From: Klebsiella pneumoniae
GTDB lineage: Bacteria; Pseudomonadota; Gammaproteobacteria; Ga0077536
Assembly: GCA_945876945.1 (NCBI GenBank)
Contig: CAMCQE010000003.1
Coordinates: 5,446 to 69,445 of the forward strand
Direction: 5' to 3'
DNA length: 64,000 nt
Shown here: piece after piece, positions 1,005 to 30,594 of the stretch
Layout: the number at the start of each line of letters is the position of its first letter
Position numbering within the stretch: position 1 is the stretch's first letter
Program-made: the position numbers and the translations under genes
Notes under the pieces: model-generated
Told to the model about the DNA's origin: nothing
Database searches by the model: none
Seen by the model: the letters and a program-made list of their open reading frames with translations, nothing else

Positions 1005-1822
1005 AGCGGAGTCTCCAGCAAGTCGCCCAGATACGGGCGGGATGGGAAGTGGAACGGCACCGGGCCGTCGGGTAGACCGCCAATGAACTGGCGGACCATC
1101 GGGGAGTCGGAATCCCGCAATTCGGCCGGCGTTCCCGCCCCGACAATTTTGGCGCCCGCCATAATAAACAGGTAGTCAGCAATGGAGCTGGTTTCCGCAA
1201 CGTCGTGCGAGACGATGATGCTGGAGAGTCCCAGCGCGTCATTAAGTTCGCGAATCAGGCGCACCAGGATGCCCATAGAGATCGGGTCTTGACCCGCAAA
1301 CGGCTCGTCGTAAAGCACCATTGTGGGGTCCAGCGCAATGGCCCGCGCCAGCGCCACGCGCCGCGCCATGCCGCCGGAAAGCTCCCGGGGGTAGAGATCG
1401 CGCGCGCCGCGCAAGCCCACCATTTCCAGTTTCATCAGCACCAGACTCCGCAGAATCGACGGCGGCAGCCGGGTATGTTCGCGGATGGGGAACGCCACGT
1501 TTTCGAAGACCGTTAAATCGGTGAGCAACGCGCCGTTCTGGAACAACATGCCCATGCCTTTGCGCAACTGGTACAGGCCGTCACGGGAGAGCGTCTGGAC
1601 GTTAGCCCCGTTCACCTCGACGCTGCCTTGCTGAGACGCGAGTTGCGCGCCAATCAAACGTAAAAGCGTCGTTTTGCCGCTACCGCTCGGTCCCAGGATG
1701 GCGGTGACCTTGCCGCGCGGGATATCCAGATCCACGCCATCGAAGATCGCCCTCGAGCCCCGCCGGAAGTGCAGATTTCGAATACGAACGATTGAATCAG
1801 GGCCTGAGCGTGGGCTGTTCAT
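1001..1822 (-). CDS. mlaF: Phospholipid ABC transporter ATP-binding protein MlaF
   Basis: Walker [13 protein letters not shown] signature [14 protein letters not shown], Walker [16 protein letters not shown] at 1820-1822. 4-nt overlap with mlaE. Confidence 0.85.
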
Positions 1823-1921
1823 GACTGCCTTCCGGGGGCCCTTAGTCTAGAGCCCTAAAGGCACCGCCGAAACCATCAATGTGGGCAGCAATGCCGAAAA
1901 ATCGATCGGCTGGCGCCCGGC

Positions 1922-2992
1922 GTGCAAATGCGCGACCGTATGTGCCTTTTTTGGCGTCCGGTTTGCCCGGAGGAGGCGCTGGTGGATTGTATTCAGGACA
2001 TCGAAGTCGAAAGCCTCGGCCATGGCGGCTGGCGGCTGGGCTGGCAACCAAACTTCAGCGCCCGAGCGGTGGCGGTGTATTGGGGGACTCAGCCGGACGC
2101 TATCGACCCAACTGCACTCGTCAGTGGCGCGCACGGCACGGCCGAGTTGAGGCTGCCCGCAGCTTGCGTGCGCCCCTATTTCGAACTCGTCGCCGAGGAC
2201 GGTGCCCGGATCGTGGTAGCCGAGCGTCAGGTGCCGCTGGAGGGAGGGGTTAACTTCAGGGATTTGGGCGGTTACCAGACTCGCCACGGCACCCGGTTGC
2301 GGTGGGGTAAGTTGTTTCGCTCAGGCCATATGTCTCGCCTGACGGCGGCCGACCAGACTTTGTTGACGGCGCTGGGCATTCGGACAGTCTGCGATTTCCG
2401 GATGGCCGAAGAGCGCGCGAACGAAAACGCCACCCTCAGCTGTGAGCCCACGCTGGAAACCCTGGGAATTCCGCCCGGCCTCAAGGACCGCTTTTTCCTC
2501 CATCGCCTGTTTGAACAGACCGATGACCCGGAGGTGGTGGTGGAGGCGATGCACGAGATCATGCGCTCGCTGATTCTCGAGTGCGCCCCGCACTACGCGC
2601 GGCTGTTTGACGCGCTGTTAGGGGCCGCCGACGGCAGCGTCCTGATGAACTGTTCTGCGGGCAAGGAGCGGACCGGCGTGGGGGCGGCACTGCTCCTCCT
2701 CGCCCTCGGTGTTCCGCGCACCACCATCCTGTACGATTTCGCGCTCTCGCGACGCTATTTCCCGGCAGCTTCCGAATTGCCGCGGGCGCGCGAGAAGTAC
2801 AATGTTCAGGAACGACCCGGCCGCGATGTGGAAGCGCTGATGGCGCCGCTGCTCTTCACGCGCGAGTCGTATCTGGAAGCCGTGTTCGGTGTGATCGACG
2901 AGCGCTACGGCGACGACGACAGCTTTCTGCGGCAAGCAATGGGCGTGGGTGAGCCAGAGCGGGCTCGTCTGCGTGATCGCTTCACGTCTTGA
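1922..2992 (+). CDS. Protein-tyrosine/dual-specificity phosphatase-like protein (Y_phosphatase3-type) with about 110-aa N-terminal extension
   Basis: CX5R P-loop NCSAGKERTG. The NFRDLGG motif typical of the start of the catalytic domain of this family is present. The true start is uncertain; several Met codons lie at 1922-1940. Confidence 0.7.
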   Translation: MQMRDRMCLFWRPVCPEEALVDCIQDIEVESLGHGGWRLGWQPNFSARAVAVYWGTQPDAIDPTALVSGAHGTAELRLPAACVRPYFELVAEDGARIVVAERQVPLEGGVNFRDLGGYQTRHGTRLRWGKLFRSGHMSRLTAADQTLLTALGIRTVCDFRMAEERANENATLSCEPTLETLGIPPGLKDRFFLHRLFEQTDDPEVVVEAMHEIMRSLILECAPHYARLFDALLGAADGSVLMNCSAGKERTGVGAALLLLALGVPRTTILYDFALSRRYFPAASELPRAREKYNVQERPGRDVEALMAPLLFTRESYLEAVFGVIDERYGDDDSFLRQAMGVGEPERARLRDRFTS

Positions 2993-3010
2993 AGGGAGAG
3001 ACGACAAACT

Positions 3011-3748
3011 ATGAGCACGCTGTACAGCGATAACGATAAATACGCATGGCAATCGACGTTCGCAATCGTCGAGGCATACAACGCAGCCGTGAAAGATCTG
3101 GTGCGCCAGCGCTTCGCCGAATTTGCCGGCGAGTGGAACGACTTCGTTGCCGGTCCAGCCTACGACGTGATTACCAAAGCCGACATCGCGGCGATCGAAG
3201 CGAAACTGCTGGCCAACGGCTACCGCTTTGAGCCCTCTGCCATGTCTTCGGCGGCCGAGCGCCCGCATGCCTATCGTGACTCCGGGGTGAATCTCGCGGA
3301 CTTTTCGTTCGAGCATCCTGCCGCGCCCACCGCCGAACCGGATGGCGAAGGGCGCGAACTGCGCGGTGTGGGCGATAACGTGGTCTCCCGCAAGACCGAC
3401 CTCATCGGCATCGCCCGCTACGTGCGTACGAGTGACAAGGTGCTCGAGTACCTCACGCAGGGCGTCCCGCCCAATACCATCGCGGTGGTTGAAGACTCCG
3501 GCGGCACGCTCACCGCGCCGGTGTTGGAGAAATTTACGGGCGTTCTTTGCGCGGGCGGCACGACGCGTTCGCACCTTGCAATTCTCACCCGGGAATACGG
3601 CATTCCCTGCCTGATGAACGCGCGCTTGTCGGGCATCCGCGACGGCGACAGGCTGATGCTTGAAGTCACCGCACGCGCCAAAACAGCCGACGACTACCAG
3701 ACCGGGGCCGACGTTTCTGCCCGTGTCTTTCGTCTGCCGCCAGCCTGA
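3011..3748 (+). CDS. Stand-alone PEP-utilising-enzyme mobile (phosphohistidine swivel) domain protein
   Basis: The C-terminal ~85 aa carry the swivel-domain signature AGGTTRSHLAILTREYGIPCLMN (compare GGxTSHAAIxAR..GIP in PpsA/PPDK/EI). The N-terminal ~150 aa are unassigned. SD-like GAAGGGAGAG sits just upstream of the ATG at 3011. Confidence 0.7.
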   Translation: MSTLYSDNDKYAWQSTFAIVEAYNAAVKDLVRQRFAEFAGEWNDFVAGPAYDVITKADIAAIEAKLLANGYRFEPSAMSSAAERPHAYRDSGVNLADFSFEHPAAPTAEPDGEGRELRGVGDNVVSRKTDLIGIARYVRTSDKVLEYLTQGVPPNTIAVVEDSGGTLTAPVLEKFTGVLCAGGTTRSHLAILTREYGIPCLMNARLSGIRDGDRLMLEVTARAKTADDYQTGADVSARVFRLPPA

Positions 3749-3770
3749 TTAGCGAGAAGGAATCGACATC

Positions 3771-5321
3771 ATGTCCGAACCGCAACTGACTTATGCCCAA
3801 CTGCTGGAAACCAATAACCTCATCCAGCAGAACGCCGATGAAACCTACTGGCTGTGCGCCACCCGCACGGTGCAGGAATCCAAAATCTTTCCGGTTTCTG
3901 CCTACATTCTGTTTTCCTATCTGAACTGCTGGTATCGCTATCCCGAACTGCTGCGCAAAATCGAGCGGCACATGTCGGCCGAGGAAATCGGCGATCGGGC
4001 ACGCAATCAGGGCATCAAGATTGTGGCCTGGTGTCTGCCCTGCTTTTATCTTCTGGGGCGCGAGATGCTCATCAACTGGGGGGTTATCACGCCGAGCGAC
4101 GGGGTGAAGGATCTCATCTACACGCTCGACTTCTGGAAGCGCTTCCAACTGTCCTGGCATCGGAACAACGGCAACCTGATTAACCGGCAGGCGGGCCATC
4201 GTGCCCAGGTGTTGCCCGAGCAGCGATTGCAGGTTTTCCACGCCGATGCGTTTGAGTGCCGTGACGGCGATCCCCTGCACAAGGCGGCGCAGTCGTTTCT
4301 GGCCGCTGCCGCCCAGTACGGATTTCTGGTGTCCTGCGAGAGCCGCCTGACGCTGCATAACCATGGTCCTTACCGGATTTCGGATAAACGCGAAATGCTG
4401 GTGCGCGACTTCCTCGAGCTCTCCGAATCAACGGTCCCCTGGCTCGACGGCGTCGGCGGCGAAATCCCCTACAACAACCTCACGGTGACCATGATTCTCG
4501 AGGGCTGCCACATCAACCTGCTGGACGATTGGGGCTCCTTCGAATCTGAACCGGAGATGCGTGCGGAACACATGGTGGGCGTTGGGTTGTATACCGCCGA
4601 CACGCTATCTGAAGGCCACATCCCGGTGGGCATGGGCAGCAAGGAAGAGTTAACCGCAACCTTTATCGACTTAACCGATCGCATCAAAAATGCGACCGCC
4701 GCCCTCTGGCGCGAAATGGCCGGCTGGACCCGCGATCAACAGCTTGATGCGGGCGCGATTACCTACTACGCCGTGATCCGTGAGTTCGCCCTGATCGCCG
4801 GTTGCTACGAGATGGAAGACTGGATGCTGATCGACGAACGTGCGGAGCGCTTCCGGCCCTTGCTGAACGATGAGTACGGCAATCTGTTCCTCGGCGAACT
4901 GGTTGGCTACATCAGTTCGCCCAGTCAGCGGATGCACGACTACACCATGATGCAGCACACCGATGCGCCCACCCGCTCGCTCTCCTATATCCCTTATTCC
5001 ATTTTGGAGGATGGCAACTACACGCCGTCCGTCGGGCCGATGCGTCCGGGTGACAGCTATTTGCCGCGCAAGAACGATCGGTACCGCACCACGCAGGGCG
5101 TGTTCAGTCTGGAAGAATTCATGCGCCGCTCGCGCGAGTTTGTGCCGCAGGTGTGCCAGCCACAGTATCGATACCTCTGCGCGGACTGGGTGAAATACAA
5201 CGCCCACACGCCGCTCGCCGAAGCCCTTTTCAAGCTTGAACAACAGCATTCTCGCGTGCTGAAAGACGCCGGCGCCGGGCTTCGTCGTGATGACGTAGAA
5301 ACTCGGCGCAACCAGACTTGA
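3771..5321 (+). CDS. Hypothetical protein, 516 aa, no recognisable family
   Basis: Long uninterrupted ORF with SD-like GAGAAGGAA before the ATG at 3771 and tight spacing to both neighbours. Trp/Tyr/Cys-rich, with no motif I can place. By eye it has more A/T at third positions than the flanking genes. Confidence 0.6.
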   Translation: MSEPQLTYAQLLETNNLIQQNADETYWLCATRTVQESKIFPVSAYILFSYLNCWYRYPELLRKIERHMSAEEIGDRARNQGIKIVAWCLPCFYLLGREMLINWGVITPSDGVKDLIYTLDFWKRFQLSWHRNNGNLINRQAGHRAQVLPEQRLQVFHADAFECRDGDPLHKAAQSFLAAAAQYGFLVSCESRLTLHNHGPYRISDKREMLVRDFLELSESTVPWLDGVGGEIPYNNLTVTMILEGCHINLLDDWGSFESEPEMRAEHMVGVGLYTADTLSEGHIPVGMGSKEELTATFIDLTDRIKNATAALWREMAGWTRDQQLDAGAITYYAVIREFALIAGCYEMEDWMLIDERAERFRPLLNDEYGNLFLGELVGYISSPSQRMHDYTMMQHTDAPTRSLSYIPYSILEDGNYTPSVGPMRPGDSYLPRKNDRYRTTQGVFSLEEFMRRSREFVPQVCQPQYRYLCADWVKYNAHTPLAEALFKLEQQHSRVLKDAGAGLRRDDVETRRNQT

Positions 5322-5334
5322 GTGGAGATGCCTC

Positions 5335-5940
5335 ATGAATAACGATTTGCACTGGGTGATGCACGGCGTTGCGATCCGCAAGCACGGGAGTGCGCATGAC
5401 ATCGCCGCTATTTGTGGCTTGCCCGAAGCGCGGGTAAACGAAGTGCTGGCTACCGCTGCTGCCGGCGGCAGAGTGGTGGAATCAGAGGGGCGTTATCTGC
5501 TGTCGCCCGCAGGCCAACTCATTCTGGCCAGTGATTACTCGCGCTTCTGCGGACCGCTACGCGCCAATGCTGGCTTTCATTCCGCGTATGAACGTTTCGA
5601 GCGGATAAACGTCGATCTAAAACAGCTCATTACGGATTGGCAGACGGTAGAGTTAGGTGGCAAACGCGTCCCCAACGACCACGCTGATGCCGCCTATGAC
5701 CGACGCATCATCGACCGCCTTGGCGACCTGCATGAACGCTTTGAGCCGATTCTTCGTGCCTTGGTGGCCGGCGCGTCTCGCTTGCGCGTGTATCAGGACA
5801 AACTGATGGCAGCGCTGGAGTCTGCGGAAGCGGGCGACGTGGCCGCGGTCAGCGATGCCCGCACCGACAGTTACCACACCGTATGGTTTGAACTGCATGA
5901 AGACCTGCTCCGTTTGATGGGGCGGCAGCGCGAAGAGTAA
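5335..5940 (+). CDS. Hypothetical protein, 201 aa, possible N-terminal winged-helix domain plus helical C-terminal domain
   Basis: GGAG lies 8 nt before the ATG at 5335. The N-terminal segment HGSAHDIAAICGLPEARVNEVLATAAAGGRVVESEGRYLLSPAG resembles a wHTH. No firm family assignment. Confidence 0.5.
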   Translation: MNNDLHWVMHGVAIRKHGSAHDIAAICGLPEARVNEVLATAAAGGRVVESEGRYLLSPAGQLILASDYSRFCGPLRANAGFHSAYERFERINVDLKQLITDWQTVELGGKRVPNDHADAAYDRRIIDRLGDLHERFEPILRALVAGASRLRVYQDKLMAALESAEAGDVAAVSDARTDSYHTVWFELHEDLLRLMGRQREE

Positions 5941-6010
5941 TCAATTAAAACGCCTGGCCGCTGGCGGGCGACGAACACCTGACTGAACTGGATTTGAAGG
6001 GGAATTAACG

Positions 6011-6793
6011 ATGGGTCGTCTGAACGGAAAGATTGCATTAATCACGGGCGCGGGCACCGGCATTGGACGGGCTTGCATGGTGATGTTTGCCAAAGAGGGT
6101 GCGACGGTGTTCGGGGTTTCCCGCACGCAGGGCAATCTGGATGAATCTTTGCGTCTGACCCATGCGGCTGGCGGACAGGGCAGCGTCTTCAGCGCGGATC
6201 TTTCGCAACCCGAACAGGTGGAAGCGGCGATTAATCAGTGCGTGGCGAGCTATGGTCGGATCGATATCCTGCTGAACGCTGCCGGGGTGGGGTACAACCT
6301 TCGCGAGACCAGCGAAGGCTCCATGGACCCGGTTCACAGCACGCCGATCGATAAATGGCGCGAGGTCATGGCGCTGAATCTGGATAGCGTGTTCTATGTC
6401 TCTCGTCTCGTGATTCGTCAGATGAAAACCCAAGCCAAGGGCGCCATCGTGAACGTGGCGAGTATCTTTGGCCTTGGCGGTGCGCCGGATGCCCATACCT
6501 ACACGGCGACCAAAGGCGCCATCATCAACCTCACCCGTTCCATGTCGGTGGCCTATGTCGACGACAACATCCGCTGCAACGTGGTGGCGCCGGGTTTTGT
6601 CGCAACGCAGATGGTGGAGAGCGTGATTCCGATGCTGTTCTCGGCAGAAAACCCCAAGCTGATCTCCCCGATGGGCCGGCCCGCAACGCCTGATGAAGTC
6701 GCCTACGCCTGTCTCTATCTGGCGTCCGACGAAGCCTCGTATTGCACTGGCAGCGTGCTCACGGTGGACGGCGGCTCGACCGCTCGCGCCTGA
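6011..6793 (+). CDS. SDR-family oxidoreductase
   Basis: Cofactor motif TGAGTGIGRA, catalytic YTATKGA and the NAAG motif. 260 aa, typical of a classical SDR. Confidence 0.85.
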   Translation: MGRLNGKIALITGAGTGIGRACMVMFAKEGATVFGVSRTQGNLDESLRLTHAAGGQGSVFSADLSQPEQVEAAINQCVASYGRIDILLNAAGVGYNLRETSEGSMDPVHSTPIDKWREVMALNLDSVFYVSRLVIRQMKTQAKGAIVNVASIFGLGGAPDAHTYTATKGAIINLTRSMSVAYVDDNIRCNVVAPGFVATQMVESVIPMLFSAENPKLISPMGRPATPDEVAYACLYLASDEASYCTGSVLTVDGGSTARA

Positions 6794-6815
6794 GCTCAAG
6801 CCTCCCACAGCCGCC

Positions 6816-7331
6816 ATGGAATACGTCAGCACCAAACGCTACTACTGCCCACAATGCGGCGTGGACGCGCTGGAGAGTCTGGACAACAAACTCTACGGTT
6901 GCTCGCGCTGCGGGCACACGTATTTCCACAATACGGCGGTTGCGGTCTCGGCAGTGATTGAGCATGAAGGGCGTATTGCCTGGATTACCCGCGCGCGCGA
7001 ACCCGGCGCGGGATTGCTCGACTTGCCGGGTGGTTTTGTCGAGCGCGACGAGTCGCTGGAAGAAGCGGTGTTGCGTGAAACCCGGGAGGAAACCGGGTTC
7101 ACACCCTGCGAACCGCGCTACCTGTTTTCAATCCCTAATCGCTACATTTTTCACGGCGTGCGATACAGCACTGTGGATGTGTTCTTCGGTTGCCGCCTGC
7201 TGGATTTGGGCCATTTCGTCCCGAACGATGAAGCGTCGAATCTGGAATGGATGAGGCCCGAGTCGGTAGATCTGGGCCGTATCGCCTTCGAATCGACACG
7301 CCTCGCGCTCGCCAAGCTGCTGAAGCCCTGA
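6816..7331 (+). CDS. Nudix hydrolase with N-terminal zinc ribbon (NudC-like architecture)
   Basis: CPQCG-X17-CSRCG zinc ribbon followed by the Nudix box GGFVERDESLEEAVLRETREETGF. I start it at the ATG at 6816 (MEYVSTKRYY) rather than the track start at 6693, which overlaps the SDR gene. Confidence 0.8.
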   Translation: MEYVSTKRYYCPQCGVDALESLDNKLYGCSRCGHTYFHNTAVAVSAVIEHEGRIAWITRAREPGAGLLDLPGGFVERDESLEEAVLRETREETGFTPCEPRYLFSIPNRYIFHGVRYSTVDVFFGCRLLDLGHFVPNDEASNLEWMRPESVDLGRIAFESTRLALAKLLKP

Positions 7332-7513
7332 GGGCTTAACACTTTTTCTATTGATGCTCGCCGTCGGCATACTGCTGCATCAGCTCGACGCCGCTCGCGT
7401 TCTGCGCGATCAGCGTCGCCAAGCATTCAACTTTCTGACCGACGTTGTGGCCAGCTTGACGTTAGTCGCTGGCGCCCGACAATGCGGTGACCATCGCGAA
7501 GGATTTTAGTGAC

Positions 7514-8467
7514 ATGAGCAACGCAGGCGAACGACTTCCGGGCACGCCCACTCCCATGCATCGCTGGTTGGGTGCGCAGGGCGTGACCATTGCCGGCGAC
7601 AGCTGGGGTGATCCGGAGGGCCCGCTGGTGCTCCTCCAGCACGGCGGTGGGCAGACCCGCCACGCCTGGAAGAATGTAGGCGAGGCCTTGGGGGCGGTCG
7701 GTTATTACGCGGTAGCGTTTGATGCTCGCGGTCACGGCGATTCGGACTGGGCTGCTGATGGCGTCTACGGTCAGGACATCATGGTTGAGGACCTTGCCTG
7801 TGTGCTGCGAGCGCTGGGCAGGCAGCGCGCGGTACTGGTGGGTGCGTCGATGGGCGGTGCGACGAGCCTGGTCGCCGTTGGCGAGGATCGGGTCGATGCA
7901 ACGGCGCTCGTGTTGGTGGACATCGCGCCCCGCATCGAGCCTGAAGGCGTGGAAAAAATTCAGGCCTTCATGAATCAGCGACCTGAAGGCTTCGATTCGC
8001 TGGAAGAGGTCGCGCAGGCCATTGGCGCCTATCAGCCACACCGGAAGCCGCCGAAGGATCTGGCGGGGCTGGCGAAGAATCTTCGGCTGACGCCTGAGGG
8101 CAAATATCGTTGGCACTGGGACCCGCGTTTCATGACGCTCCGACGCGAAATGGACAAGCGCCTGGTGCGTCTTGAAGCCTGCGCGTCAGCGCTTGAGTTG
8201 CCGACCTTGCTGGTGCGAGGCGGCCTGTCTGATGTCCTGAGCGAAGAGGGGGCGGCGGCCTTTCTGGTGAGCTGTCCGCACAGCGAATACGTGAATATCA
8301 CGGACGCCGGGCACATGGTGGCGGGCGACCGCAACGATGTATTCGGCAAGGCCGTGATTGATTTTCTCGCCCGCACCGTGCCGGTATCTGGCGCGCCAGT
8401 CCATGCGGCGCATGAGCTGCATCCGCATCATCAGGGTTTGCCGGGGGATGTGACTGACGTGCCCTGA
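7514..8467 (+). CDS. Alpha/beta-fold hydrolase
   Basis: LLQHGGGQTRHAW oxyanion region and nucleophile elbow GASMGG. The track ORF starts at GTG 7487; the ATG at 7514 is the alternative used here. Confidence 0.8.
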   Translation: MSNAGERLPGTPTPMHRWLGAQGVTIAGDSWGDPEGPLVLLQHGGGQTRHAWKNVGEALGAVGYYAVAFDARGHGDSDWAADGVYGQDIMVEDLACVLRALGRQRAVLVGASMGGATSLVAVGEDRVDATALVLVDIAPRIEPEGVEKIQAFMNQRPEGFDSLEEVAQAIGAYQPHRKPPKDLAGLAKNLRLTPEGKYRWHWDPRFMTLRREMDKRLVRLEACASALELPTLLVRGGLSDVLSEEGAAAFLVSCPHSEYVNITDAGHMVAGDRNDVFGKAVIDFLARTVPVSGAPVHAAHELHPHHQGLPGDVTDVP

Positions 8468-8476
8468 GGGGCTTGC

Positions 8477-9406
8477 TCAGGCGGCGCGGCGCCGCTCGGC
8501 CACGTACTCCATGCGAAGAAACACGTTGTTGGCGACCAGCGCGCTGACCACCAGTCCGGCGCCCGTCAGTTCCATCACTGAGAAGCGTTGGCCCTGTAAG
8601 GCTCTGAAGGCGAAGGTCATCACCGGCATGAAGTTGATAAACAGCGTGGCGTTCAGCGGACCAATGCGTTTATTGCCGAAATTCCACGCCAGCATCGAAA
8701 ACAACACGCCGGCAAAACTGAGATAGGCCAAGGACCAGCGCACGCTCCACAGGCCGTCAACGGTAGGGAGGCTCACGCTGCCGGCCGCCACCACACAGAT
8801 CGCGACGGCCAGATTGGCAAGCCCCCCGGGGACCATGGTTAACACGGTGATTCGCCAAATCGACCAGCCAGCTAAACGGGGCGTGCCCATGGTGTAGAGC
8901 ACCCAGGCGAGCGCCCCGAGGAAGACTAATCCGTTGCCCAGCATCTCCCCTGAAGTCTCTACCAGATGAAGCTCGCCTTTGGTGACGACCAGCACCACAC
9001 CGGCCAGCGCAACGCCGATGCACACGAGCGTAAACCCTGCCGGGCGTTTGGCTTGCAATACCCATTGCAGCACGGCGGCGATCGAAGGCTGTAAAGCGAC
9101 GATGACCACGGCATGTTCTGCGCGCGACATCGACATCCCGAGAAAAACCAGCGTGGGCGAGGCGCTCATGCCGATAAGTCCGAGCGCCCAGGCGGATTTC
9201 CATTGTTTGCCGAAGCGGAGTGCCGAGAGGCCTTCAAGCCAGACGAGCACCGGCAGCATCACCGCCAGCGCCACCAGATACCGCAGCGCGGTGGATGTAA
9301 AAGGATCAATAACGCTGAACAGGTCTTTCGCGATGGGCAGCTGGGCACCCCAGATCGCCACGGCCGCGAATGCGGCCATAAAGCCTGCTAGAAAAGAGTT
9401 TTTCAA
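8477..9406 (-). CDS. DMT-superfamily (EamA-like) transporter
   Basis: About 10 hydrophobic segments in two EamA-like halves, 309 aa. The start is either TTG 9406 or ATG 9379. Confidence 0.8.
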   Translation of the reverse strand: MKNSFLAGFMAAFAAVAIWGAQLPIAKDLFSVIDPFTSTALRYLVALAVMLPVLVWLEGLSALRFGKQWKSAWALGLIGMSASPTLVFLGMSMSRAEHAVVIVALQPSIAAVLQWVLQAKRPAGFTLVCIGVALAGVVLVVTKGELHLVETSGEMLGNGLVFLGALAWVLYTMGTPRLAGWSIWRITVLTMVPGGLANLAVAICVVAAGSVSLPTVDGLWSVRWSLAYLSFAGVLFSMLAWNFGNKRIGPLNATLFINFMPVMTFAFRALQGQRFSVMELTGAGLVVSALVANNVFLRMEYVAERRRAA

Positions 9407-9609
9407 TCGGAAGCTCTGCGGTCAGCGACAAGGCGAGGGGTCAAAAGTAAAAACCATCGAGCCGCGAGGGCCGTAACGAATTGTGGCCGTAGTCTACGGG
9501 CCCCTTCGATGCTTTCACAGTTGTGCAGTGCAGACTGTTGTCAGGGTCCCTAAATAAAGTACTTTGCGACGCTGACGCCCCTTCGCGCGGTCAGCAAACC
9601 CAAGAATCG

Positions 9610-12057
9610 ATGAGTGTACCCGCCATGTATTCGCTCCGCTTTCGCATTGCGCACTGGGTTTTGGCCCACCGAAAAACCGCCTGGTTTATCTTCATTGCGC
9701 TGACCGTGTTTTTCGCCGCAGGCTTGCCCAAGGTTGAGCTACGCACGATTTTCTCCGAACTGCTGCCCACCGACGATCCGTTCGTCCAGGTTTACGAAGC
9801 ACATCCGGGGTTTGGTAATCCGCTCACCGTGGCGGTGATGATCAAGCGCAAGGACGGCACGATTTACAACGAAGACACGCTGGCGAAGGTGTGGAAGTTC
9901 ACCCGCGATATCGACCTCGTGCCCGGCGTCGACCACGACATGATTCTTTCGCTGGCCAGCAGCAAGGCGCGCTACAGCGAATCCACCGCGAATGGCATCG
10001 ATATGCGACCGCTGATGGCGGACCGGGCCCCCCAAACCGCCGAGGAATTGCAGCAATTTCAACGGCTCGTCGATAAAGCGCCCAACGTGCGGGTGTTCCT
10101 CATTTCCCGCGATGACACCGCCACGCTCATTACGGCCACCTTCATCGAACATCGTCTCGATTACGGCGTGGCGTTTGAGCACCTCCAGCGTTTGGTGCGG
10201 GAAGCGCGCGACGAGCACCATGAGGTTTATTTGGCGGGGCAGCCGGTGCTCATCGGCTGGGTTTACCAATACGAGTGGCAGATGGTGCAGATATTTACCG
10301 TTACCCTCGTTTGTCTCATCGGCGCGCTCATGCTCTACATGCGCAATATCGTGGGCGTCATCACGCCGATCATTACCAGTGCGACCGCCGGCATTTGGGC
10401 CTTTGGCCTCGTGGGCTGGCTCGATATTTCGATTGAGCCGCTGCTGATGGTGGTGCCCCTGCTGCTGACGGCGCGCTCGTTTTCGCATTGCGTGCAGTTT
10501 ACCGAGCGCTTTTACGAGGTTTACGCCGAAGTAGGCGACCGGGTTAAAGCCGCCGAGATCACGATGGGCGTGATGATGGCGCCCAGCATCGTCGGCATCA
10601 TCACCGACATTCTCGGTATTTTTATTGTGGTGGCGGCGCCGATTCCGGCCATGGTTCGCCACGCCATCTTCTGCGGCATGTGGGCGGTATGGCTGATTCC
10701 GACCGGGGTGGTGTTGATTTCGCTGCTGCTGGCCACGCTACCCGCGCCCCGCAACATCCATCGGCTGACGGGCAAGGGCAGAGTCTCCGGTTTCCATCTG
10801 CGCTTGCAGTCCGTGCTGTCTTCGGTCGCGAGTTTATCGGTGGGACCTACCGCGCGGGCGACCACCGGCGTGGTGGTGGTGCTCAGCGTGATCGCGATTT
10901 ATATCGCCGGCCAGATCCGCATCGGCAATCCGGTCGAAGGCTCGGGATTGTTCTGGCACGACTCCGAGTTCAACACGGCGGTACGCCAAATCAATGGCCA
11001 TTTCCCCGGCGTGAACACGCTCGAAATCGTGCTGGAGTCGAAAGACCGCAAGAGCCTCGAACTGCAGATCCAGAAGCACGAGATACAAGCCACCATGCAG
11101 CGGCTGCAAACGCTCATGGAGTCCGGCCCCAATCCGCCCCGCGCCACGCTGTCCTTTGCTGATTACGTGAGCGAGGGTAATCGTCTGTTCAACGGCGGGA
11201 ATCCCAAGTGGTCCCTGTTGGACCCCAATGATCAGGCAACCAGCGCGGCCTCGTTCGCCGTCACGATGGGAACGAGCGCGAAAAATTTCGGTCACGTGGT
11301 GGACGAAAAATGGCTGGATGGCACGGTGTCGCTTTGGTATCCGGACAACAAGCAGGCCACAGTCGATGCCGCGATCGCCGCTGCTACCGAGGCCGTGAAC
11401 AAGGTTGGCATCGACCACGAGCGATTCACGGTCAGAATGGCCACGGGCACCATCCCGCTCCAGCAGGCGGTGAACCACGTGGTCGAGCGCTATCACTGGG
11501 TGGTGGTGCTGGTGCTTAACTTCCTCATTCTGATCATCTGCAGCGTGGCTTATCGCTCGCTCGTGGCGGGCCTGCTGTTGCTGGTGCCGGTTAACCTTGC
11601 AAATGAAGTGCTCTACGCGGCCATGCACCTGCTAGGCGTTGGGCTGGACGTGAATTCACTCATTGTGGCGGCGATTGGGCTCGGGGTTGGTATCGACTAC
11701 GGGATCTATCTGTTGTCCCGCATCTGCGAGGAATATCACACCGCCGAGGGCGACTGGACGGTGGCGATTACCGCCGCGCTCCGCACCACTGGCAAGGCGA
11801 TTCTGTTCACCGCCACCATCATGGCCTTGGGGATAGCGCCCTGGTACTTCCTGTCGGGACTTAAATTTGTCGCCGACATGGGCCTGCTGCTGATCGTCAT
11901 CATGGCCATCAACATGGTGTTGTCGCTGGTGGTGTTGCCCCTGATCGTCTGGATCGTGAAGCCGTCATTCGCGTCGCGAAGAGATCTGCTGGTGGGTGAG
12001 GGCGTTGATCTCTCGCTCTTCACGGCGGGGGCTGGCGAAGGGCCGGCGGTTCGTTAA
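9610..12057 (+). CDS. RND-superfamily / MMPL-like exporter (HpnN-like architecture)
   Basis: Two blocks of about 6 TM helices separated by large soluble loops, about 815 aa from the ATG at 9610 (MSVPAMYSLRF). The track start at 9523 adds an unlikely leader. Confidence 0.75.
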   Translation: MSVPAMYSLRFRIAHWVLAHRKTAWFIFIALTVFFAAGLPKVELRTIFSELLPTDDPFVQVYEAHPGFGNPLTVAVMIKRKDGTIYNEDTLAKVWKFTRDIDLVPGVDHDMILSLASSKARYSESTANGIDMRPLMADRAPQTAEELQQFQRLVDKAPNVRVFLISRDDTATLITATFIEHRLDYGVAFEHLQRLVREARDEHHEVYLAGQPVLIGWVYQYEWQMVQIFTVTLVCLIGALMLYMRNIVGVITPIITSATAGIWAFGLVGWLDISIEPLLMVVPLLLTARSFSHCVQFTERFYEVYAEVGDRVKAAEITMGVMMAPSIVGIITDILGIFIVVAAPIPAMVRHAIFCGMWAVWLIPTGVVLISLLLATLPAPRNIHRLTGKGRVSGFHLRLQSVLSSVASLSVGPTARATTGVVVVLSVIAIYIAGQIRIGNPVEGSGLFWHDSEFNTAVRQINGHFPGVNTLEIVLESKDRKSLELQIQKHEIQATMQRLQTLMESGPNPPRATLSFADYVSEGNRLFNGGNPKWSLLDPNDQATSAASFAVTMGTSAKNFGHVVDEKWLDGTVSLWYPDNKQATVDAAIAAATEAVNKVGIDHERFTVRMATGTIPLQQAVNHVVERYHWVVVLVLNFLILIICSVAYRSLVAGLLLLVPVNLANEVLYAAMHLLGVGLDVNSLIVAAIGLGVGIDYGIYLLSRICEEYHTAEGDWTVAITAALRTTGKAILFTATIMALGIAPWYFLSGLKFVADMGLLLIVIMAINMVLSLVVLPLIVWIVKPSFASRRDLLVGEGVDLSLFTAGAGEGPAVR

Positions 12058-12081
12058 TCCGCCCGCCGCAGGCGACCGAAC

Positions 12082-12107
12082 GACATGGGCTAGCGCACGC
12101 CCATGTC
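12082..12107. terminator. 9-bp inverted repeat (GACATGGGC-N8-GCCCATGTC) between convergent genes, overlapping the stop of the LLM gene
   Basis: Hand-indexed arms at 12082-12090 and 12099-12107. There is no U-tract, so this is only a terminator-like hairpin. Confidence 0.35.
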
Positions 12108-13154
12108 GCGCAAGAGTGGCTCGATGTCCCGGGCAAAACGCAGGGTGTCGTCGTGATAGGCCTGAAACACCATCAACAGGCCATCAAGTCCAGCCTGGTA
12201 AAGCGACGCCAGTTGCGTGGCAACCTGCTCCTTCGTGCCGATCACAGGTAGGGCGCCCGCTCCAAGCACCAGCATGTCCAGCGTGAATTGATCGAAGGAA
12301 CCGCTCCCGAGCCCGAGGCCCGCGAGCCAGTTACCCGCCGCCACGTTGTCCTTGTGCGCGATGATGCGCGCGACCTCGGCCTGGGCTTCGTCTTCTGAAT
12401 CTCGCCACAGGACGAAGGGAAATCCTGCGCACTGCACCTGCCGACCATGGGCCGCGGCGCGGGCATGGATGTCTTGCGTGATCTCCGGGATCGCCGTTGC
12501 TGACGGCGGGCTGATAAACGCCCAGTCGCACAGCCGCGCCACCATGGCTTTGGCATCCGGCGAGACGCCGGCATTGGCGACGGGCGGCGCGATGCGCGGT
12601 TGCGGCAAGGAGTAACCGCCGCGCACCTGATACCACGGCGAATCAAAATTGAAACTGCCCGGCGGTTCTGTCCATAAGCCGCGCAAAATCTCGACAAACG
12701 CCGCCGTGCGCTGGTAGCGCTCTTCATGGGGCAACAGCGCAACGCCCATCATTTCAAACTCTTCCTTGCTCCAACCGCTGACGAGGTTGATGCCCCAGCG
12801 GCCCTGACTGAGGTGGTCCATGGTGGCGCCCATCTTGGCGACCACCACTGGATGGAAGACCGGCACGTGGACGGTGGAAAACACTCGGATGCGCGAGGTC
12901 ACCGCCAGCAAGGCCGACGCCCAGGTCATCGTTTCCATGGACGTGCCGAGATAGTCGGTCTCGCCGCCAAAGCCCCGCCAACGGCTGACTGGAAAGAGAA
13001 AATCAAAGCCGGCCGCCTCGGCCGCCAGGGCGATGCGCTTGTTCGACTCGTAGGGCCATTCATCCGGCACCGTACGGTGGGTGCTGATGGCGTACATGTT
13101 GCTGCAGTTCGGCATGAATAGCCCAAGCTGCAAACCGTTACGGGAAGTGTTCAT
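12090..13154 (-). CDS. LLM-class (luciferase-like) flavin-dependent oxidoreductase
   Basis: 354 aa with a typical LLM N-terminus (LQLGLFMPNCSN.., FDFLFPVSRWRG) and a TIM-barrel-sized ORF. ATG at 13152-13154. Confidence 0.8.
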   Translation of the reverse strand: MNTSRNGLQLGLFMPNCSNMYAISTHRTVPDEWPYESNKRIALAAEAAGFDFLFPVSRWRGFGGETDYLGTSMETMTWASALLAVTSRIRVFSTVHVPVFHPVVVAKMGATMDHLSQGRWGINLVSGWSKEEFEMMGVALLPHEERYQRTAAFVEILRGLWTEPPGSFNFDSPWYQVRGGYSLPQPRIAPPVANAGVSPDAKAMVARLCDWAFISPPSATAIPEITQDIHARAAAHGRQVQCAGFPFVLWRDSEDEAQAEVARIIAHKDNVAAGNWLAGLGLGSGSFDQFTLDMLVLGAGALPVIGTKEQVATQLASLYQAGLDGLLMVFQAYHDDTLRFARDIEPLLRDMGVR

Positions 13155-13187
13155 GCGAATGACCGATGGTTGCGAAGATAGGGGTTT

Positions 13188-14042
13188 TCAGGACGCCGAG
13201 GCCTGTGCGCGAAGCGCCTGTTCGATACAGGCGACGAACTCGGCCTCCGTTCTGGCACCCGCCAGAACGTCCGCGCTGATGATATAGCCATGCTCCCGGG
13301 CGATGCTTTCATAGCGCGGGACACGGGCGGCGAACAGACGGGGGAACATCCACAGCACAAAGTCATCCGGGCGAATGTCTTCAATGCCCTTGAGCGCTCG
13401 CTCTGCGAGATAAACGGCGAGTTGCTCATCGAGAAATGCAGGCCGGTAATACAGCGGTTTGGGATCGGCTTCGGCGCGGCGGAGGAGTTCGCGTCCGTTC
13501 TCCGGAGTGGCTTCGATGTAGACGATAAGGGTGTGCTTCGCCAGCACTTCGAGCGCCTGCGGGTCGTCCAGTTCACAGAGGCTGCCCGCAGAGTCATTGA
13601 CGAAGTGCTGATAGCCGTAGATTTCATGGGCTTTGGCGATGAATTCCGGCACGTCCAGCATGGCCGCCACTTCGGCGTCCCGATACAGCTGTTGGCGGCG
13701 TTTGAATTCCTGCAGATCCAATCCCGCCAGGCTCGGCGTACCCAGCTTTCCCAGAAACGTCAGGACAGCCGTCAGGTTGTCGACCGTGATGTTGTTCGAG
13801 ATATAGATGGAGTCGGAGCGGAGCAGTTCGCGCAAGAAGGGCACTTGCATGACCTGCCGCTTGATGTTGTCGAGAATCGGCTCATTGAGATAGCGCGTGC
13901 CGATGCGGTAATCCGCCGAGTAGTGGAACCAGTTCGCCTGCCGTAGCCTGCCCGAAAGATGGGTTTTGCCCACGCCGGACATTCCCAGCAGGGTGATCGA
14001 CTTGGCGTTCCAGTCGCGAAATTCTGCGGCAGTCATTTTCAT
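13188..14042 (-). CDS. P-loop NTPase/kinase-like protein of unknown function
   Basis: Walker A GMSGVGKTHLS near the N-terminus. About 284 aa from the ATG at 14042 (the track gives GTG 14048). 33 nt upstream of the LLM gene on the same strand. Confidence 0.6.
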   Translation of the reverse strand: MKMTAAEFRDWNAKSITLLGMSGVGKTHLSGRLRQANWFHYSADYRIGTRYLNEPILDNIKRQVMQVPFLRELLRSDSIYISNNITVDNLTAVLTFLGKLGTPSLAGLDLQEFKRRQQLYRDAEVAAMLDVPEFIAKAHEIYGYQHFVNDSAGSLCELDDPQALEVLAKHTLIVYIEATPENGRELLRRAEADPKPLYYRPAFLDEQLAVYLAERALKGIEDIRPDDFVLWMFPRLFAARVPRYESIAREHGYIISADVLAGARTEAEFVACIEQALRAQASAS

Positions 14043-16238: not shown

Positions 16239-18818
16239 TCAGGCGTTGGCTTCGGCAACGCGCTGGTTGAGATGTTCCAGCGCTTCCTGCACCTGATCGA
16301 TGAGGATCAAACACAGGTCGCCCGGCGCCAGTGTGCTGAGTGCCCGGTCAATAGCGATGAACTCGCCGCGGATTTCCTCGATCTCTCGCGTCCGTTCGGC
16401 GCCCACCAGCCCTTCGCGCAGGAGTCCCAGCACTTCGCCATCTTCGCGGCCGCGCTGACAGGCATCCTGATACAGCAAGACGGTGTCGAAGGCCGTGCCC
16501 AAAATGCGGGTCTGGTCTCGGATGTCTTCATCCCGACGATCGCCGGCACCGCTGATCACCACCGTGCGCCGCTTGGCGGGTAGGGCGATCACGGCATCCA
16601 CCAGCGCCTTCATGGCGTCCGGGTTGTGGCCATAGTCGGCAATAACGGTGGCGCCCCGGTAGTCCAGCAGATTGAAGCGGCCCGGCGTCGAGGCGACATC
16701 GGACTGGAAACTCGCCAGACCGGCGCGCAAGGCAACGGTGTCGACATTCACCGCCCAGCAGGCCGCCACAGCGGCCATGGTGTTGTCGATCTGGAAACCC
16801 ACCCGTCCGCCCATCGTCAGCGGGATGTCAGCCAGCGCCAGACGGAACACCTCTTCGCTCTGATTGACGCAAACGATTGCGTCGTCATCGAGATACACCA
16901 CCGCTCGCCCCTGCGCGCGGTGGGTCACCATCAGCGGATTGGCGCGATCGCGCGAGAAGAAAACAACGCTCCCGGGGCAGACGCTGCCCAGCCGCGCGCA
17001 CATGGGGTCGTCGGCATTCAGCACCGCATAGCCGGTAGGCGAGACATTTTGCACGATCACGCGCTTCAGCACCGCGAGGTCTTCGACGGTCGTAATGTAG
17101 TTGAGGCCCAGATGGTCGCCCGCGCCGATGTTGGTGACGACTGCCACCTGGCAGCGGTCAAAGGCGAGCCCTTCGCGCAGAATGCCTCCTCGCGCGGTTT
17201 CCAACACGGCGGCGTCGACGTCGGGGTGCATGAGAATGGTTTTGCCGCTGCGCGGTCCGCTGCAGTCGCCGGCGTCCAGTTGGCGGCCGCCGGCATAGAC
17301 GCCATCGGTGGTAGTCAGGCCTACGCGCAAACCCTGTTGCTCCAGCAGATGGGCAATCAGGCGCACGGTGGTGGTTTTGCCATTGGTGCCAGTCACGGCG
17401 ATGACCGGGATTCGTCCGTCCTGATCGGCAGCGAACATCTCGTTGATGATGGCCTCGCCCACGCGCCGACCGGTGCCATAGGACGGCGTGAGGTGCATGC
17501 GTAAACCCGGTGCCGCGTTAACTTCCACCACGCCGCCGGACTGTTCTTCCAGCGGCCGCAGCACGGACTGACACACCACGTCCACGCCACAAATCTCAAG
17601 CCCCACCATCTGCGCGGCCGTGACGGCACGGGCGGCGAGGTCGGGATGCACCTGATCGGTGACATCGGTGGCGGTGCCGCCGGTGGACAGATTGGCGTTA
17701 TTGCGTAGGACCACCGGTTGGCCGAGCGCGGGCACCGCGTCCAGCGTCAGGTGCTGGTTGTGCAAGCAGGCCATGGCAATGTCGTCGATCGGGATGCGGG
17801 TCAGGGAGGTGGCGTGACCGGTGCCACGACGCGGATCGCGGTTCACTTCGTCCACCAGTTCCTGAATGGTGTGGACGCCGTCGCCCGTGACCAGCGGCGG
17901 CTCGCGGCGGGCAGCAGCGATGAGTTTGTCGCCAATCACGAGCATGCGGTAATCGCTGCCCGGGATGAAGCGTTCGATGATGACGCGCGAGCCGGCCTCG
18001 GCGGCGGAGCGGAAGCCGGCCTCCAGCTGTTCGCGCGTTTCGACGTTCACGGTGACGCCCCGGCCATGGTTGCCATCTTGTGGTTTCACCACCACCGGCA
18101 GCCCGAGCGCGCAGGCGATGTCCCAGGCGTCATTGATGTCATCCACCGGCTGACCTTCTGGCACGGGAACGCCGGCCGCGGCCAGCAGCTGCTTGGTCAG
18201 CTGTTTGTCCTGTGCGATCGATTGCGCGATGGCGCTGGTCCGGTCCATTTCCGCCGCCTGAATCCGGCGCTGCCGGCTGCCCCAGCCGAACTGGATAAGG
18301 CTGCCTTCGCTGAGTCGGTAGAACGGGATTCCGCGTTCCAGCGCGGCCGAGACAATTGATCCTGTGGAAGGGCCTAGCCTCACATCTTCGTAGATTTCCC
18401 GTAGCCGGCTAATTTCTGCCTCCACATCGAAGGGCAGACCTTCGCGTGCCGCGTTGATCAGACGCTCCGCGATATCGATGGCGGAGCGGCCGACGTCTTC
18501 CTGATCGTATTCCACCACCACCTGATACACGCCACGGTCTGGGGCGGTGGCGGTGCGGCTGAAGGTGACCGGGCAACCAATGTCGCACTGCAGGCTCAGC
18601 GTTGCGACTTCCAGCACCTGAGCGAATCCGTTCGTGCTGCCTTCCGGCGGTGACGCCAGCGATTGCAGGCGTGGATAGAGCGCTCGCAGTCGCTCCTCGA
18701 AGCCAGAAAACTGACTTAAGTCGCGCTCGGTATCGTCGCAGGTGACGATGGCTTCGATGGCGGTGCGACGGGTCCAGAGATTGGGGCCGCGTAGGGCCCG
18801 GACACGATCAACTTGCAT
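16239..18818 (-). CDS. cphA: Cyanophycin synthetase (full length)
   Basis: The N-terminal LRGPNLW region, ATP-grasp core (VVVKPQDGNHGRGV), Mur-ligase P-loop VTGTNGKTTT and C-terminal DYGHNPDAM / SGAGDRRDED are all present. The ATG at 18818 is preferred over the TTG at 18869. Confidence 0.9.
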   Translation of the reverse strand: MQVDRVRALRGPNLWTRRTAIEAIVTCDDTERDLSQFSGFEERLRALYPRLQSLASPPEGSTNGFAQVLEVATLSLQCDIGCPVTFSRTATAPDRGVYQVVVEYDQEDVGRSAIDIAERLINAAREGLPFDVEAEISRLREIYEDVRLGPSTGSIVSAALERGIPFYRLSEGSLIQFGWGSRQRRIQAAEMDRTSAIAQSIAQDKQLTKQLLAAAGVPVPEGQPVDDINDAWDIACALGLPVVVKPQDGNHGRGVTVNVETREQLEAGFRSAAEAGSRVIIERFIPGSDYRMLVIGDKLIAAARREPPLVTGDGVHTIQELVDEVNRDPRRGTGHATSLTRIPIDDIAMACLHNQHLTLDAVPALGQPVVLRNNANLSTGGTATDVTDQVHPDLAARAVTAAQMVGLEICGVDVVCQSVLRPLEEQSGGVVEVNAAPGLRMHLTPSYGTGRRVGEAIINEMFAADQDGRIPVIAVTGTNGKTTTVRLIAHLLEQQGLRVGLTTTDGVYAGGRQLDAGDCSGPRSGKTILMHPDVDAAVLETARGGILREGLAFDRCQVAVVTNIGAGDHLGLNYITTVEDLAVLKRVIVQNVSPTGYAVLNADDPMCARLGSVCPGSVVFFSRDRANPLMVTHRAQGRAVVYLDDDAIVCVNQSEEVFRLALADIPLTMGGRVGFQIDNTMAAVAACWAVNVDTVALRAGLASFQSDVASTPGRFNLLDYRGATVIADYGHNPDAMKALVDAVIALPAKRRTVVISGAGDRRDEDIRDQTRILGTAFDTVLLYQDACQRGREDGEVLGLLREGLVGAERTREIEEIRGEFIAIDRALSTLAPGDLCLILIDQVQEALEHLNQRVAEANA

Positions 18819-18865
18819 GAGGGATAGGGTCCTGTCTTTAAGGACTGGGCAACGGGGTGTATGGC

Positions 18866-30574: not shown

Positions 30575-30594
30575 GCTGTTCCAGAAAGGAGCCG

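Follow-up and report, generated by a model that had tools for sequence, protein, structure and literature searches.

Swivel-histidine dikinases are a small enzyme class whose mechanism is well understood. The second-substrate domains described for them in the literature consulted are of two kinds, the PEP/pyruvate domain of pyruvate phosphate dikinase (PPDK) and phosphoenolpyruvate (PEP) synthase, and the rifampin-binding type of rifampin phosphotransferase (RPH) and HpeH (PMC12167813). Here we report a computational analysis of a six-gene cluster (positions 1922-7331) in a 64,000-nucleotide stretch of contig CAMCQE010000003.1, deposited as Klebsiella pneumoniae and called the window below, in which the gene for a stand-alone phosphohistidine swivel protein of 245 amino acids (aa) is followed by genes for two orphan proteins of 516 and 201 aa. 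These three proteins very probably form one functional unit, and we lean, by a modest degree, toward the view that they are the acceptor half of a multi-component swivel-histidine (PEP-synthase/PPDK-type) dikinase in a catabolic route of phosphorylation, carboxylation and dephosphorylation.

In the closest described pathways, Hpe of Rhodococcus, Acv of Sphingobium and Xcc of Aromatoleum, a PpsAB-like dikinase phosphorylates the phenolic hydroxyl of 4-hydroxyacetophenone or acetovanillone, and at the end of the route a HAD phosphatase removes the phosphate and a CoA ligase and a cleaving enzyme complete the pathway (PMC9618137; bioRxiv 10.1101/2022.04.28.489975). The three-subunit biotin carboxylase HpeCBA acts only on the phosphorylated ketone, and HpeD then carries out the dephosphorylation (PMC9618137). 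The acceptor domain of HpeH has the rifampin-binding-domain fold, and HpeH alone catalyzes phosphate exchange between the phosphorylated product and the substrate (PMC12167813). A second, unrelated kinase, MarK (UPF0261) of Novosphingobium aromaticivorans, feeds the same type of carboxylase, which shows that the kinase step arose more than once (PMC12624787). The route that we propose would be analogous to Hpe, Acv and Xcc, without homology between the trio and the kinases of those pathways.

The swivel carrier and its two partner proteins

The three genes at the center of the cluster are the following.

3011..3748, plus strand: stand-alone phosphohistidine swivel carrier, 245 aa (PF00391, E 3.4e-8, residues 153-215)
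3771..5321, plus strand: 516-aa protein of an unnamed family, proposed acceptor (second-substrate) domain; core of approximately residues 12-355 widely conserved
5335..5940, plus strand: 201-aa partner subunit; N-terminal winged helix and helical domain, both predicted

The swivel domain of the 245-aa protein covers approximately residues 120-235 and contains the motif GGTTRSHLAIL, whose catalytic His188 is encoded at 3572-3574. As in the PEP-utilising dikinases, it is a mobile domain with its histidine in a GG.T.SH-type motif, and the histidine in ..SH(L)(A/G)I.. was invariant among ~92 homologues. The N-terminal ~120 aa of the protein are absent from the shorter Rhodococcus homologues (125-183 aa).

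Neither the 516-aa nor the 201-aa protein gave a Pfam-A or NCBIfam match at E <= 0.1 or a PDB match, either by sequence or by family profile, and Pfam, NCBIfam and PDB searches with distant relatives of the two proteins were likewise empty; full-text literature searches brought up the analogous Hpe, Acv, MarK and VadK work, but neither they nor the 2025-2026 family libraries yielded a description of the 516/201 family. Homologues are abundant, with 965 clusters for the 516-aa protein in a 90% database (420 representatives at the 50% level) and 2318 clusters for the 201-aa protein. The best 120 of the 965 clusters are all at least 60% identical to the query and all labelled 'hypothetical', and exact look-ups showed that NCBI and UniRef label the 516 family 'hypothetical' or 'uncharacterized' even in the cultured carriers Rhodococcus opacus B4, R. 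koreensis, R. wratislaviensis, Hoyosella and Aeromicrobium wangtongii. An alignment of 93 sequences of the 516-aa protein, reaching down to 46% identity, had a mean column identity of 64% and 65 invariant columns. Among relatives at ~25-30% identity, G96, R97 and R192 were still invariant, and R32, P41, Y45, G199-P200-Y201 and a few other residues were nearly so. The 201-aa family has the invariant clusters N114-D115-H116, H133-E134 and S179-x-H181...H188-E189 and keeps a C-terminal motif, SYHTVWFELHEDLL. The orphan proteins are clearly the products of real, strongly conserved genes.

An AlphaFold2 (AF2) model of the window's 516-aa protein, built from the 93-sequence alignment, had a mean pLDDT of 93.3 and a pTM of 0.93 and shows long helices around a central antiparallel sheet. 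When this model was compared with 350,542 PDB chains by Foldseek, no significant match was obtained (best E 0.12, TM ~0.1), and rifampin phosphotransferase was not among the matches. START/Bet v 1-like matches to the central sheet (E 1.8-4.4, TM ~0.2) were scattered and were not taken as evidence. For the 201-aa protein we used a natural 722-aa fusion of the two orphans, P0023, whose AF2 model had a pLDDT of 89.6 and a pTM of 0.73, so that its domain arrangement is less certain. In its 201-aa part a winged helix (three helices and a hairpin) is predicted at the N-terminus, followed by a helical domain, and Foldseek returned weak winged-helix matches (E > 0.07) to MarR/IclR regulators, with O-methyltransferase dimerisation domains scoring equally well. 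An earlier note on this DNA, made from the sequence alone, had suggested a possible winged helix in the 201-aa protein, which the model supports at the level of prediction. The same note had found the two central proteins unplaceable, and the Pfam, NCBIfam, PDB and Foldseek negatives agree with this; a match to a well-characterised family, which it had named as an outcome that would speak against it, did not occur.

The gene order was compared across genomes. A scan of one genome per species (185,579 species genomes) gave 456 loci with a relative, of which the best 80 were read; the locus set also took in loci from metagenome look-ups and plasmids, and layouts were determined by tblastn with reference proteins. 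The swivel-516-201 order was almost invariant across ~90 loci. Two types were distinguished by the identity of the 516-aa protein to that of the window: type A, at least 67% identical (58 loci, the window among them), and type B, 61-65% identical (28 loci). In type A the swivel gene was directly upstream of the 516-aa gene in 53/55 loci and the 201-aa gene directly downstream of it in 50/51, and a Y_phosphatase3 gene came directly before the swivel gene in 50/53. In type B the swivel gene was directly upstream of the 516-aa gene in all of the 28 loci, and the 201-aa gene lay no more than 2.5 kb away in 22/26, often behind an inserted AMP-binding ligase gene. The arrangement is not due to chance: dozens of genomes, with protein identities as low as 46%, show the same order.

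Natural fusions join the same proteins. End-to-end fusions of the 516-aa and 201-aa proteins (720-728 aa; P0017-23, P0117, P0121 and P0123) were found in several clades at 47-81% identity, and in the distant relatives P0172, P0219 and P0250 a swivel domain stands ahead of the N-terminal domain of the 516-aa protein (516 N-domain). All three components are combined in the window order in a 793-aa 'PEP-utilizing enzyme' of R. opacus B4 plasmid pROB02 (WP_043827458.1), which matched the window proteins over the swivel (E 8e-14, histidine conserved), the 516 N-domain (E 2e-18) and a 201-like domain (E 2e-17) that keeps the C-terminal SYH..W.ELHEDLL motif. A Y_phosphatase3 gene directly follows the gene for this protein, and nearby are genes for a truncated PPDK, a P450 with ferredoxin and reductase, an aldehyde dehydrogenase and an alcohol dehydrogenase, a neighborhood that resembles what we take to be the layout of the cresol (Cre) pathway. 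To our knowledge, all characterised PEP-utilising enzymes have the swivel fused to the stations that it serves, and for this reason the case for 516/201 as such a station rests most strongly on the fusions. The earlier note's proposal that the swivel protein and the two orphans belong together is thus upheld by three kinds of natural fusion and by synteny near 100%; the absence of synteny with swivel genes elsewhere, which it had said would weigh against it, was not observed.

Type-B loci and the proposed dikinase

The type-B loci associate the trio with further enzymes. A protein of 570-587 aa composed of PPDK_N and a swivel domain was encoded in 19/19 of them; an OadA/PycB-like carboxyltransferase (CT) was encoded in 16/19, in most cases preceded by biotin carboxyl carrier protein (BCCP) and biotin carboxylase (BC) genes, and a thiolase gene usually came next after the carboxyltransferase gene. 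In type A, a PPDK_N gene was present in 0/42 loci and an OadA/PycB-like carboxyltransferase gene was inserted in 8/42. The type-B carboxylase parts are an AccC-type biotin carboxylase, BCCP and a carboxyltransferase that is related to PycB/OadA but scores under their cut-offs. Type A and type B occurred together in 19 genomes, two of which are complete chromosomes (OZ244144 and OZ257136). One contig from the metagenome-assembled genome (MAG) Jr-16oct17-58 matches the window at 94% DNA identity along 9.3 kb, and this MAG carries a type-B locus on a different contig.

Gene sets like that of type B were found in other orders in freshwater actinobacterial contigs, with HAD and Y_phosphatase3 phosphatases nearby, and, again in differing orders, in Aeromicrobium wangtongii and Novosphingobium resinovorum SA1. 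On plasmid pRB98 of Rhodococcus oxybenzonivorans a single operon encodes a swivel protein, a 525-aa protein, a ligase, a 202-aa protein, 'PPDK', BCCP, BC, CT, an OB-fold protein, a thiolase, Y_phosphatase3 and an SRPBCC protein. The context of BCCP, BC, OadA/PycB-like CT, AMP-binding ligase, thiolase and short-chain dehydrogenase/reductase (SDR) therefore spans Gammaproteobacteria, Alphaproteobacteria and Actinobacteria. Directly upstream of the full pRB98 operon (L090, 7905-12275) lies a more divergent set comprising a 125-aa swivel protein, a 398-aa relative of the 516 N-domain, a 542-aa fusion of swivel and N-domain, and a protein of the NCBIfam 'Rv3169 family'; this Rv3169-family protein, which stands beside the Rhodococcus paralogue, was considered as a relative of the 516 N-domain and rejected (hhalign probability 0.05%). 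In A. wangtongii (L086, 17359-20671) two adjacent open reading frames (ORFs) of 867 and 232 aa, neither with a Pfam match, lie a few kb from the module, and no 201-aa or PPDK_N gene was found within 10 kb at this locus. Eight loci (L009, L023, L029, L031, L041, L062, L068 and L073) come from freshwater MAG records with 'Klebsiella pneumoniae', 'uncultured Klebsiella sp.' or 'Hydrogenophaga intermedia' among their titles; these titles look like mislabelling, because the gene content matches that of unclassified gammaproteobacterial MAGs.

The truncated-PPDK partner protein passes the NCBIfam equivalog NF004531/PRK05878 (707 bits for the L002 protein and 462 bits for that of L091, against a cut-off of 456), a model that we take to describe the truncated-PPDK architecture of Mycobacterium tuberculosis Rv1127c. 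In type-B loci its ATP-grasp and swivel parts match the PPDK model (TIGR01828, E 3e-148), and the protein has the canonical GGSTSHAAV motif without a PEP/pyruvate domain; the PEP/pyruvate TIM-barrel domain PF02896 was absent from every protein of these loci. A truncated PPDK also adjoins distant Rhodococcus homologues. Rv1127c, named VadK, autophosphorylates His422 with ATP/Mg; in the VadK paper no acceptor domain is named, and the role suggested for the protein is regulatory (PMC13400623). The presence of truncated PPDK together with the full pathways leaves the acceptor role vacant for 516/201.

In the scheme that we propose, the truncated-PPDK (VadK/PRK05878) ATP-grasp protein of a type-B locus would use ATP to load a swivel histidine, directly on that protein or by way of it, and for the type-A copy in the window the charging would take place in trans, from a type-B locus at another place in the genome. 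The free carrier would then, through its His188, pass the phosphoryl group to a small substrate that sits in the 516/201 complex and offers a hydroxyl or an enol. The candidate active-site residues of this complex are R32, R97 and R192 on the 516-aa side and the His/Glu/Asp cluster on the 201-aa side. The phosphorylated intermediate would be processed further, in related loci by the three-subunit biotin carboxylase, the CoA ligase and the thiolase; the SDR would supply or remove a keto group by alcohol/ketone interconversion, and the PTP-like phosphatase would finally remove the phosphate. The Hpe/Acv/Xcc and Cre pathways would be its parallels: there, phenolic ketones or cresol receive a phosphate, are modified and then lose the phosphate again. 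Four elements of the scheme are inferred, namely phosphotransfer as such, a donor that acts in trans, the kind of substrate and the sequence in which the steps follow. The earlier note had proposed the synthesis or turnover of a phosphorylated metabolite; the coupling of the trio to truncated PPDK, carboxylase, ligase and thiolase in type B points to ketone/alcohol catabolism rather than to synthesis.

Several observations weigh against the dikinase scheme. The window encodes no protein of the truncated PPDK/VadK type (NF004531), PPDK_N was absent from the 47 window ORFs scanned as well as from the 42 type-A loci, and ATP-grasp, BC, BCCP and CT genes were sought in the remaining 56 kb of the window and not found. 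No recognisable nucleotide-binding protein was present among the scanned window ORFs, and no ATP-grasp protein in the 42 type-A loci, so that charging in trans is an assumption. The type-B truncated PPDK already has a swivel domain, and the need for a second, free swivel is unexplained. Since carboxylase, ligase and thiolase genes are missing from the window locus, its downstream chemistry may differ from that of type B. The fold of the 516-aa protein offers no hint of a ligand, and VadK, the sole member of the truncated-PPDK family that has been studied, was proposed to be regulatory and not catabolic (PMC13400623). The earlier note's reading is partly upheld: a phosphotransfer module built on two orphan proteins remains the likely picture, but the module is not complete within the window, which has no ATP-binding component, and it is probably not nucleotide-linked.

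The whole system might instead be regulatory. The truncated PPDK would act as a histidine kinase, the free swivel as a phosphocarrier and 516/201 as a phosphorylation-controlled sensor or transcription factor for the neighboring catabolic genes; the winged helix of the 201-aa protein with its nearest, weak structural matches to MarR/IclR, the regulatory kinase role proposed for VadK in M. tuberculosis (PMC13400623), and a window locus with no obvious downstream enzymes except the SDR and the phosphatase would all agree with it. However, a mean column identity of 64% over 93 sequences with many invariant Arg, His, Asp and Glu residues is characteristic of enzymes, many species carry the winged helix on one chain with the 516 body, its fold is also that of the O-methyltransferase dimerisation domain, separate GntR, TetR or HTH regulators often occur in the loci, and a dedicated phosphatase with a PTP fold of the aryl-phosphate type fits a metabolite better. 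We regard such a phosphorelay as distinctly unlikely.

The lack of PPDK_N genes in all 42 type-A loci would also be expected if 516/201 itself bound a donor (PEP, an acyl- or enol-phosphate, polyphosphate or a nucleotide) and loaded the swivel, the acceptor being elsewhere, for example the product of the SDR. A donor site is conceivable in a predicted fold without a solved match, and the phosphate exchange by HpeH shows that domains of this kind work reversibly (PMC12167813). Against a self-contained phosphotransferase, truncated PPDK is present wherever the full pathway is (19/19 type-B loci and the Rhodococcus, Novosphingobium and actinobacterial loci), and type A co-occurs with type B in the 19 genomes mentioned above; we therefore give it a low probability. 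Equally improbable, in our estimate, is that 516/201 catalyzes a later step on the phosphorylated intermediate, for example as a lyase that eliminates phosphate, as an isomerase or as an accessory subunit of the carboxylase, and is merely co-located with the carrier. Its tight association with CT, BC and BCCP in type B and with CT alone in some type-A loci would be explained in this way, and the His/Glu/Asp clusters of the 201-aa subunit could, judging from their residues, bind a metal; however, several lineages with no carboxylase nearby have the swivel joined directly, on one chain, to the 516 N-domain.

Flanking genes and the rest of the window

The remaining features of the cluster are as follows.

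1922..2992, plus strand: PTP-fold phosphatase, Y_phosphatase3 (PF13350, E 1.8e-59)
6011..6793, plus strand: classical SDR (PF13561, E 4e-56; PF00106, E 8.6e-51)
6816..7331, plus strand: Zn-ribbon Nudix hydrolase (PF00293, E 5.8e-19; CxxC...CxxC ribbon)
7323-7337, T-rich tail to 7347, plus strand: terminator-like hairpin AAGCCCTGAGGGCTT, overlapping the Nudix stop codon (from a consensus scan and the sequence)

All six ORFs lie on the plus strand, separated by gaps of 18, 22, 13, 70 and 22 nucleotides (nt) from the first gene to the sixth; the ORF list and the sequence agree with the coordinates, gaps and motifs that the earlier note had given. It had also placed Shine-Dalgarno (SD)-like sequences before the starts, and purine runs of this kind were indeed present upstream of four of the six (swivel, 516, 201 and SDR), but none was found before the GTG of the phosphatase or the ATG of the Nudix gene. 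A sigma-70 promoter-like match at 7456-7483, preceding the next gene, was the sole one that the consensus scan detected in 1500-8700. The hairpin and this match, both of which are only consensus matches, would fit a single unit ending at ~7340.

The phosphatase has both the Y_phosphatase3 domain and the catalytic CX5R loop, NCSAGKERTG, with C244 encoded at 2651-2653 and R250 at 2669-2671, and the CX5R sequence was kept in every phosphatase homologue read. It has an N-terminal extension of ~100 aa, and its start codon is uncertain (GTG at 1922, or ATG at 1928 or 1940). A constant partner of the module, it was present in 50/53 type-A loci and also beside a relative that is only 25% identical. 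PTP-fold enzymes hydrolyse aryl phosphates. A phosphatase of this fold would suit a phenolic phosphate, which we take as a hint about the substrate only. The SDR, which scored under all NCBIfam equivalog cut-offs, is encoded downstream in 41/42 type-A loci, and a 44-55% identical paralogue ends 12/19 type-B loci.

The Nudix gene has an intact Nudix box, GFVERDESLEEAVLRETREETGF. Its frame is open from an ATG at 6693, overlapping the end of the SDR gene by 101 nt, and the true start is uncertain because the start at 6816 lacks an SD-like sequence. It was present in 7/42 type-A loci, all close relatives, and in none of the type-B, actinobacterial or Rhodococcus loci compared, and is a lineage-specific accessory outside the conserved core. 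This bears on the earlier note's account of the cluster, in which all six genes formed one operon for the synthesis or turnover of a small molecule, phosphorylated or nucleotide-linked, and the Nudix pyrophosphohydrolase provided one of the steps. The Nudix gene begins 22 nt past the SDR gene and stands ahead of the terminator-like hairpin, and its product resembles Nudix enzymes of the NAD(H)/ADP-ribose type, features that such an account would explain; its narrow distribution and missing SD-like sequence speak against it, and we consider it very improbable. The nucleotide-linked idea loses its basis, since the gene is not part of the conserved module, whereas the other genes do behave as a conserved unit. 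Although the evidence weighs against each of the alternatives to the dikinase scheme discussed here, only the Nudix-centered one is clearly weakened.

MlaE/MlaF-type genes lie upstream of the locus on the opposite strand, and genes for an alpha/beta hydrolase, an EamA transporter and an MMPL-type transporter lie downstream. The alpha/beta hydrolase gene (7487-8467) is syntenic only in the closest relatives, which are the seven Nudix-carrying type-A loci, the window included, and DNA similarity to one locus, L007, runs on through the MMPL-type transporter and a luciferase-like gene (window 9523-13934). An Rfam search of the window gave no match. On the minus strand at 59994-63937, a gene for an AMP-binding CoA ligase stands beside one for a 776-aa protein of two acyl-CoA-dehydrogenase units; this AMP-binding gene (59994-61610) was considered as a counterpart of the type-B ligase and rejected, being distant in the window and only 32% identical.

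The window is dense in oxygenases (12090-13154, 37950-39782, 42583-48123 and 51906-52982), with three Baeyer-Villiger/FMO-like flavoproteins, a P450 and two luciferase-like monooxygenases, and a molybdopterin oxidoreductase is encoded at 40179-42203. The oxygenase set suggests an organism specialised in ketone/hydrocarbon oxidation, which would fit a ketone-related role of the module. Elsewhere, two adjacent cyanophycin-synthetase-like genes (16239-21100, minus strand) encode proteins of 876 aa (ATP-grasp and Mur-ligase) and 744 aa (Cyanophycin_syn N-domain and ATP-grasp, without Mur-ligase). At 24782-33239 on the plus strand, genes for three consecutive paralogous tetratricopeptide-repeat proteins (655, 640 and 638 aa) precede those of a TolC-like outer-membrane factor and a multicopper oxidase, the oxidase ORF overlapping that of the TolC-like factor by 4 nt. 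At 56468-58562, LemA, a TPM-domain protein and a small ORF stand in a row, a common membrane-associated trio.

Comparison with known kinases and implications

The module resembles HpeHI, AcvAB, CreHI and PpsAB in being a multi-protein small-molecule dikinase, as we propose, around a swivel phosphohistidine, and the HpeHI-type clusters resemble the type-B loci, by protein family, in their OadA/PycB-type CT, BC, BCCP, phosphatase, CoA ligase and C-C-cleaving enzyme. However, HpeH carries the swivel and a rifampin-binding-type acceptor on one chain, with HpeI as a separate ATP-grasp protein, whereas here the swivel is a protein of its own, the putative acceptor is the 516/201 pair, without a Foldseek match to RPH or any PDB entry, and the ATP-grasp partner, unlike HpeI, is PPDK-derived and has its own swivel. 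The window proteins and their relatives matched the PRK08296 models over the swivel only. In place of a HAD phosphatase such as HpeD or AcvF there is the PTP-fold Y_phosphatase3, a HAD hydrolase being encoded only in the actinobacterial loci L087-L089 among the loci read, and the three-subunit biotin carboxylase is absent from the window and present in the type-B, actinobacterial, Rhodococcus and Novosphingobium loci. Thus, although the pathway grammar and the swivel chemistry are shared with Hpe, Acv and Xcc, the acceptor type, the free swivel, the PPDK-derived partner and the PTP-fold phosphatase place the module outside the Hpe/Pps kinases.

RPH, too, combines ATP-grasp, a swivel histidine and a dedicated small-molecule domain and transfers the beta-phosphate via the histidine to a hydroxyl, as the module would, but it is a single chain with an unrelated acceptor that has no sequence match past the swivel and no structural match to the 516-aa model. 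PPDK and PEP synthase have the swivel domain and the catalytic histidine motif in common with the present carrier, and in these loci the 516/201 pair stands in the place of their PEP/pyruvate domain; 516/201 itself matched neither known second-substrate type, TIM barrel or rifampin-binding. MarK is likewise a kinase not homologous to the Hpe type that feeds the same type of carboxylase pathway, but it is a single-protein, direct ATP-dependent kinase without a phosphohistidine carrier and has no sequence relation to the present module. A precedent for the scheme exists in the two kinases, not homologous to each other, that already serve this type of carboxylase (PMC12624787). VadK belongs to the same NF004531 family as the 570-587-aa ATP-grasp and swivel proteins of the type-B and Rhodococcus loci; in M. 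tuberculosis it has no known acceptor domain, whereas the type-B member of the family shares an operon with a candidate acceptor module.

We would class the system as a swivel-histidine dikinase whose acceptor module had gone unrecognised, and cultured hosts of it exist. A bolder version is that 516/201 represents a further class of acceptor domain beside the TIM barrel and the rifampin-binding type, and that with a VadK-like PPDK it makes up a modular four-protein kinase that primes ketones or alcohols that are not phenolic, for instance via an enol phosphate, for carboxylation by a biotin-dependent enzyme; we think that this is unlikely to hold as a whole. If it did, it would constitute a previously unrecognised route of ketone assimilation, widespread in freshwater and soil bacteria, and the natural role of the VadK-family proteins, the M. 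tuberculosis virulence factor included, would be to charge separate acceptor modules. The dikinase scheme, if correct, would add a type of acceptor domain through an abundant module (456 loci in 185,579 species genomes and ~1,000-2,300 protein clusters) and would give a function to proteins labelled 'hypothetical' in all sources checked, including those of cultured Rhodococcus, Novosphingobium and Aeromicrobium. The 'phosphorylate, carboxylate, dephosphorylate' logic of lignin-monomer catabolism would gain a third, unrelated type of kinase, which would be relevant to pathway engineering, and the VadK-family truncated PPDKs would have a testable candidate for the recipient of their phosphate.

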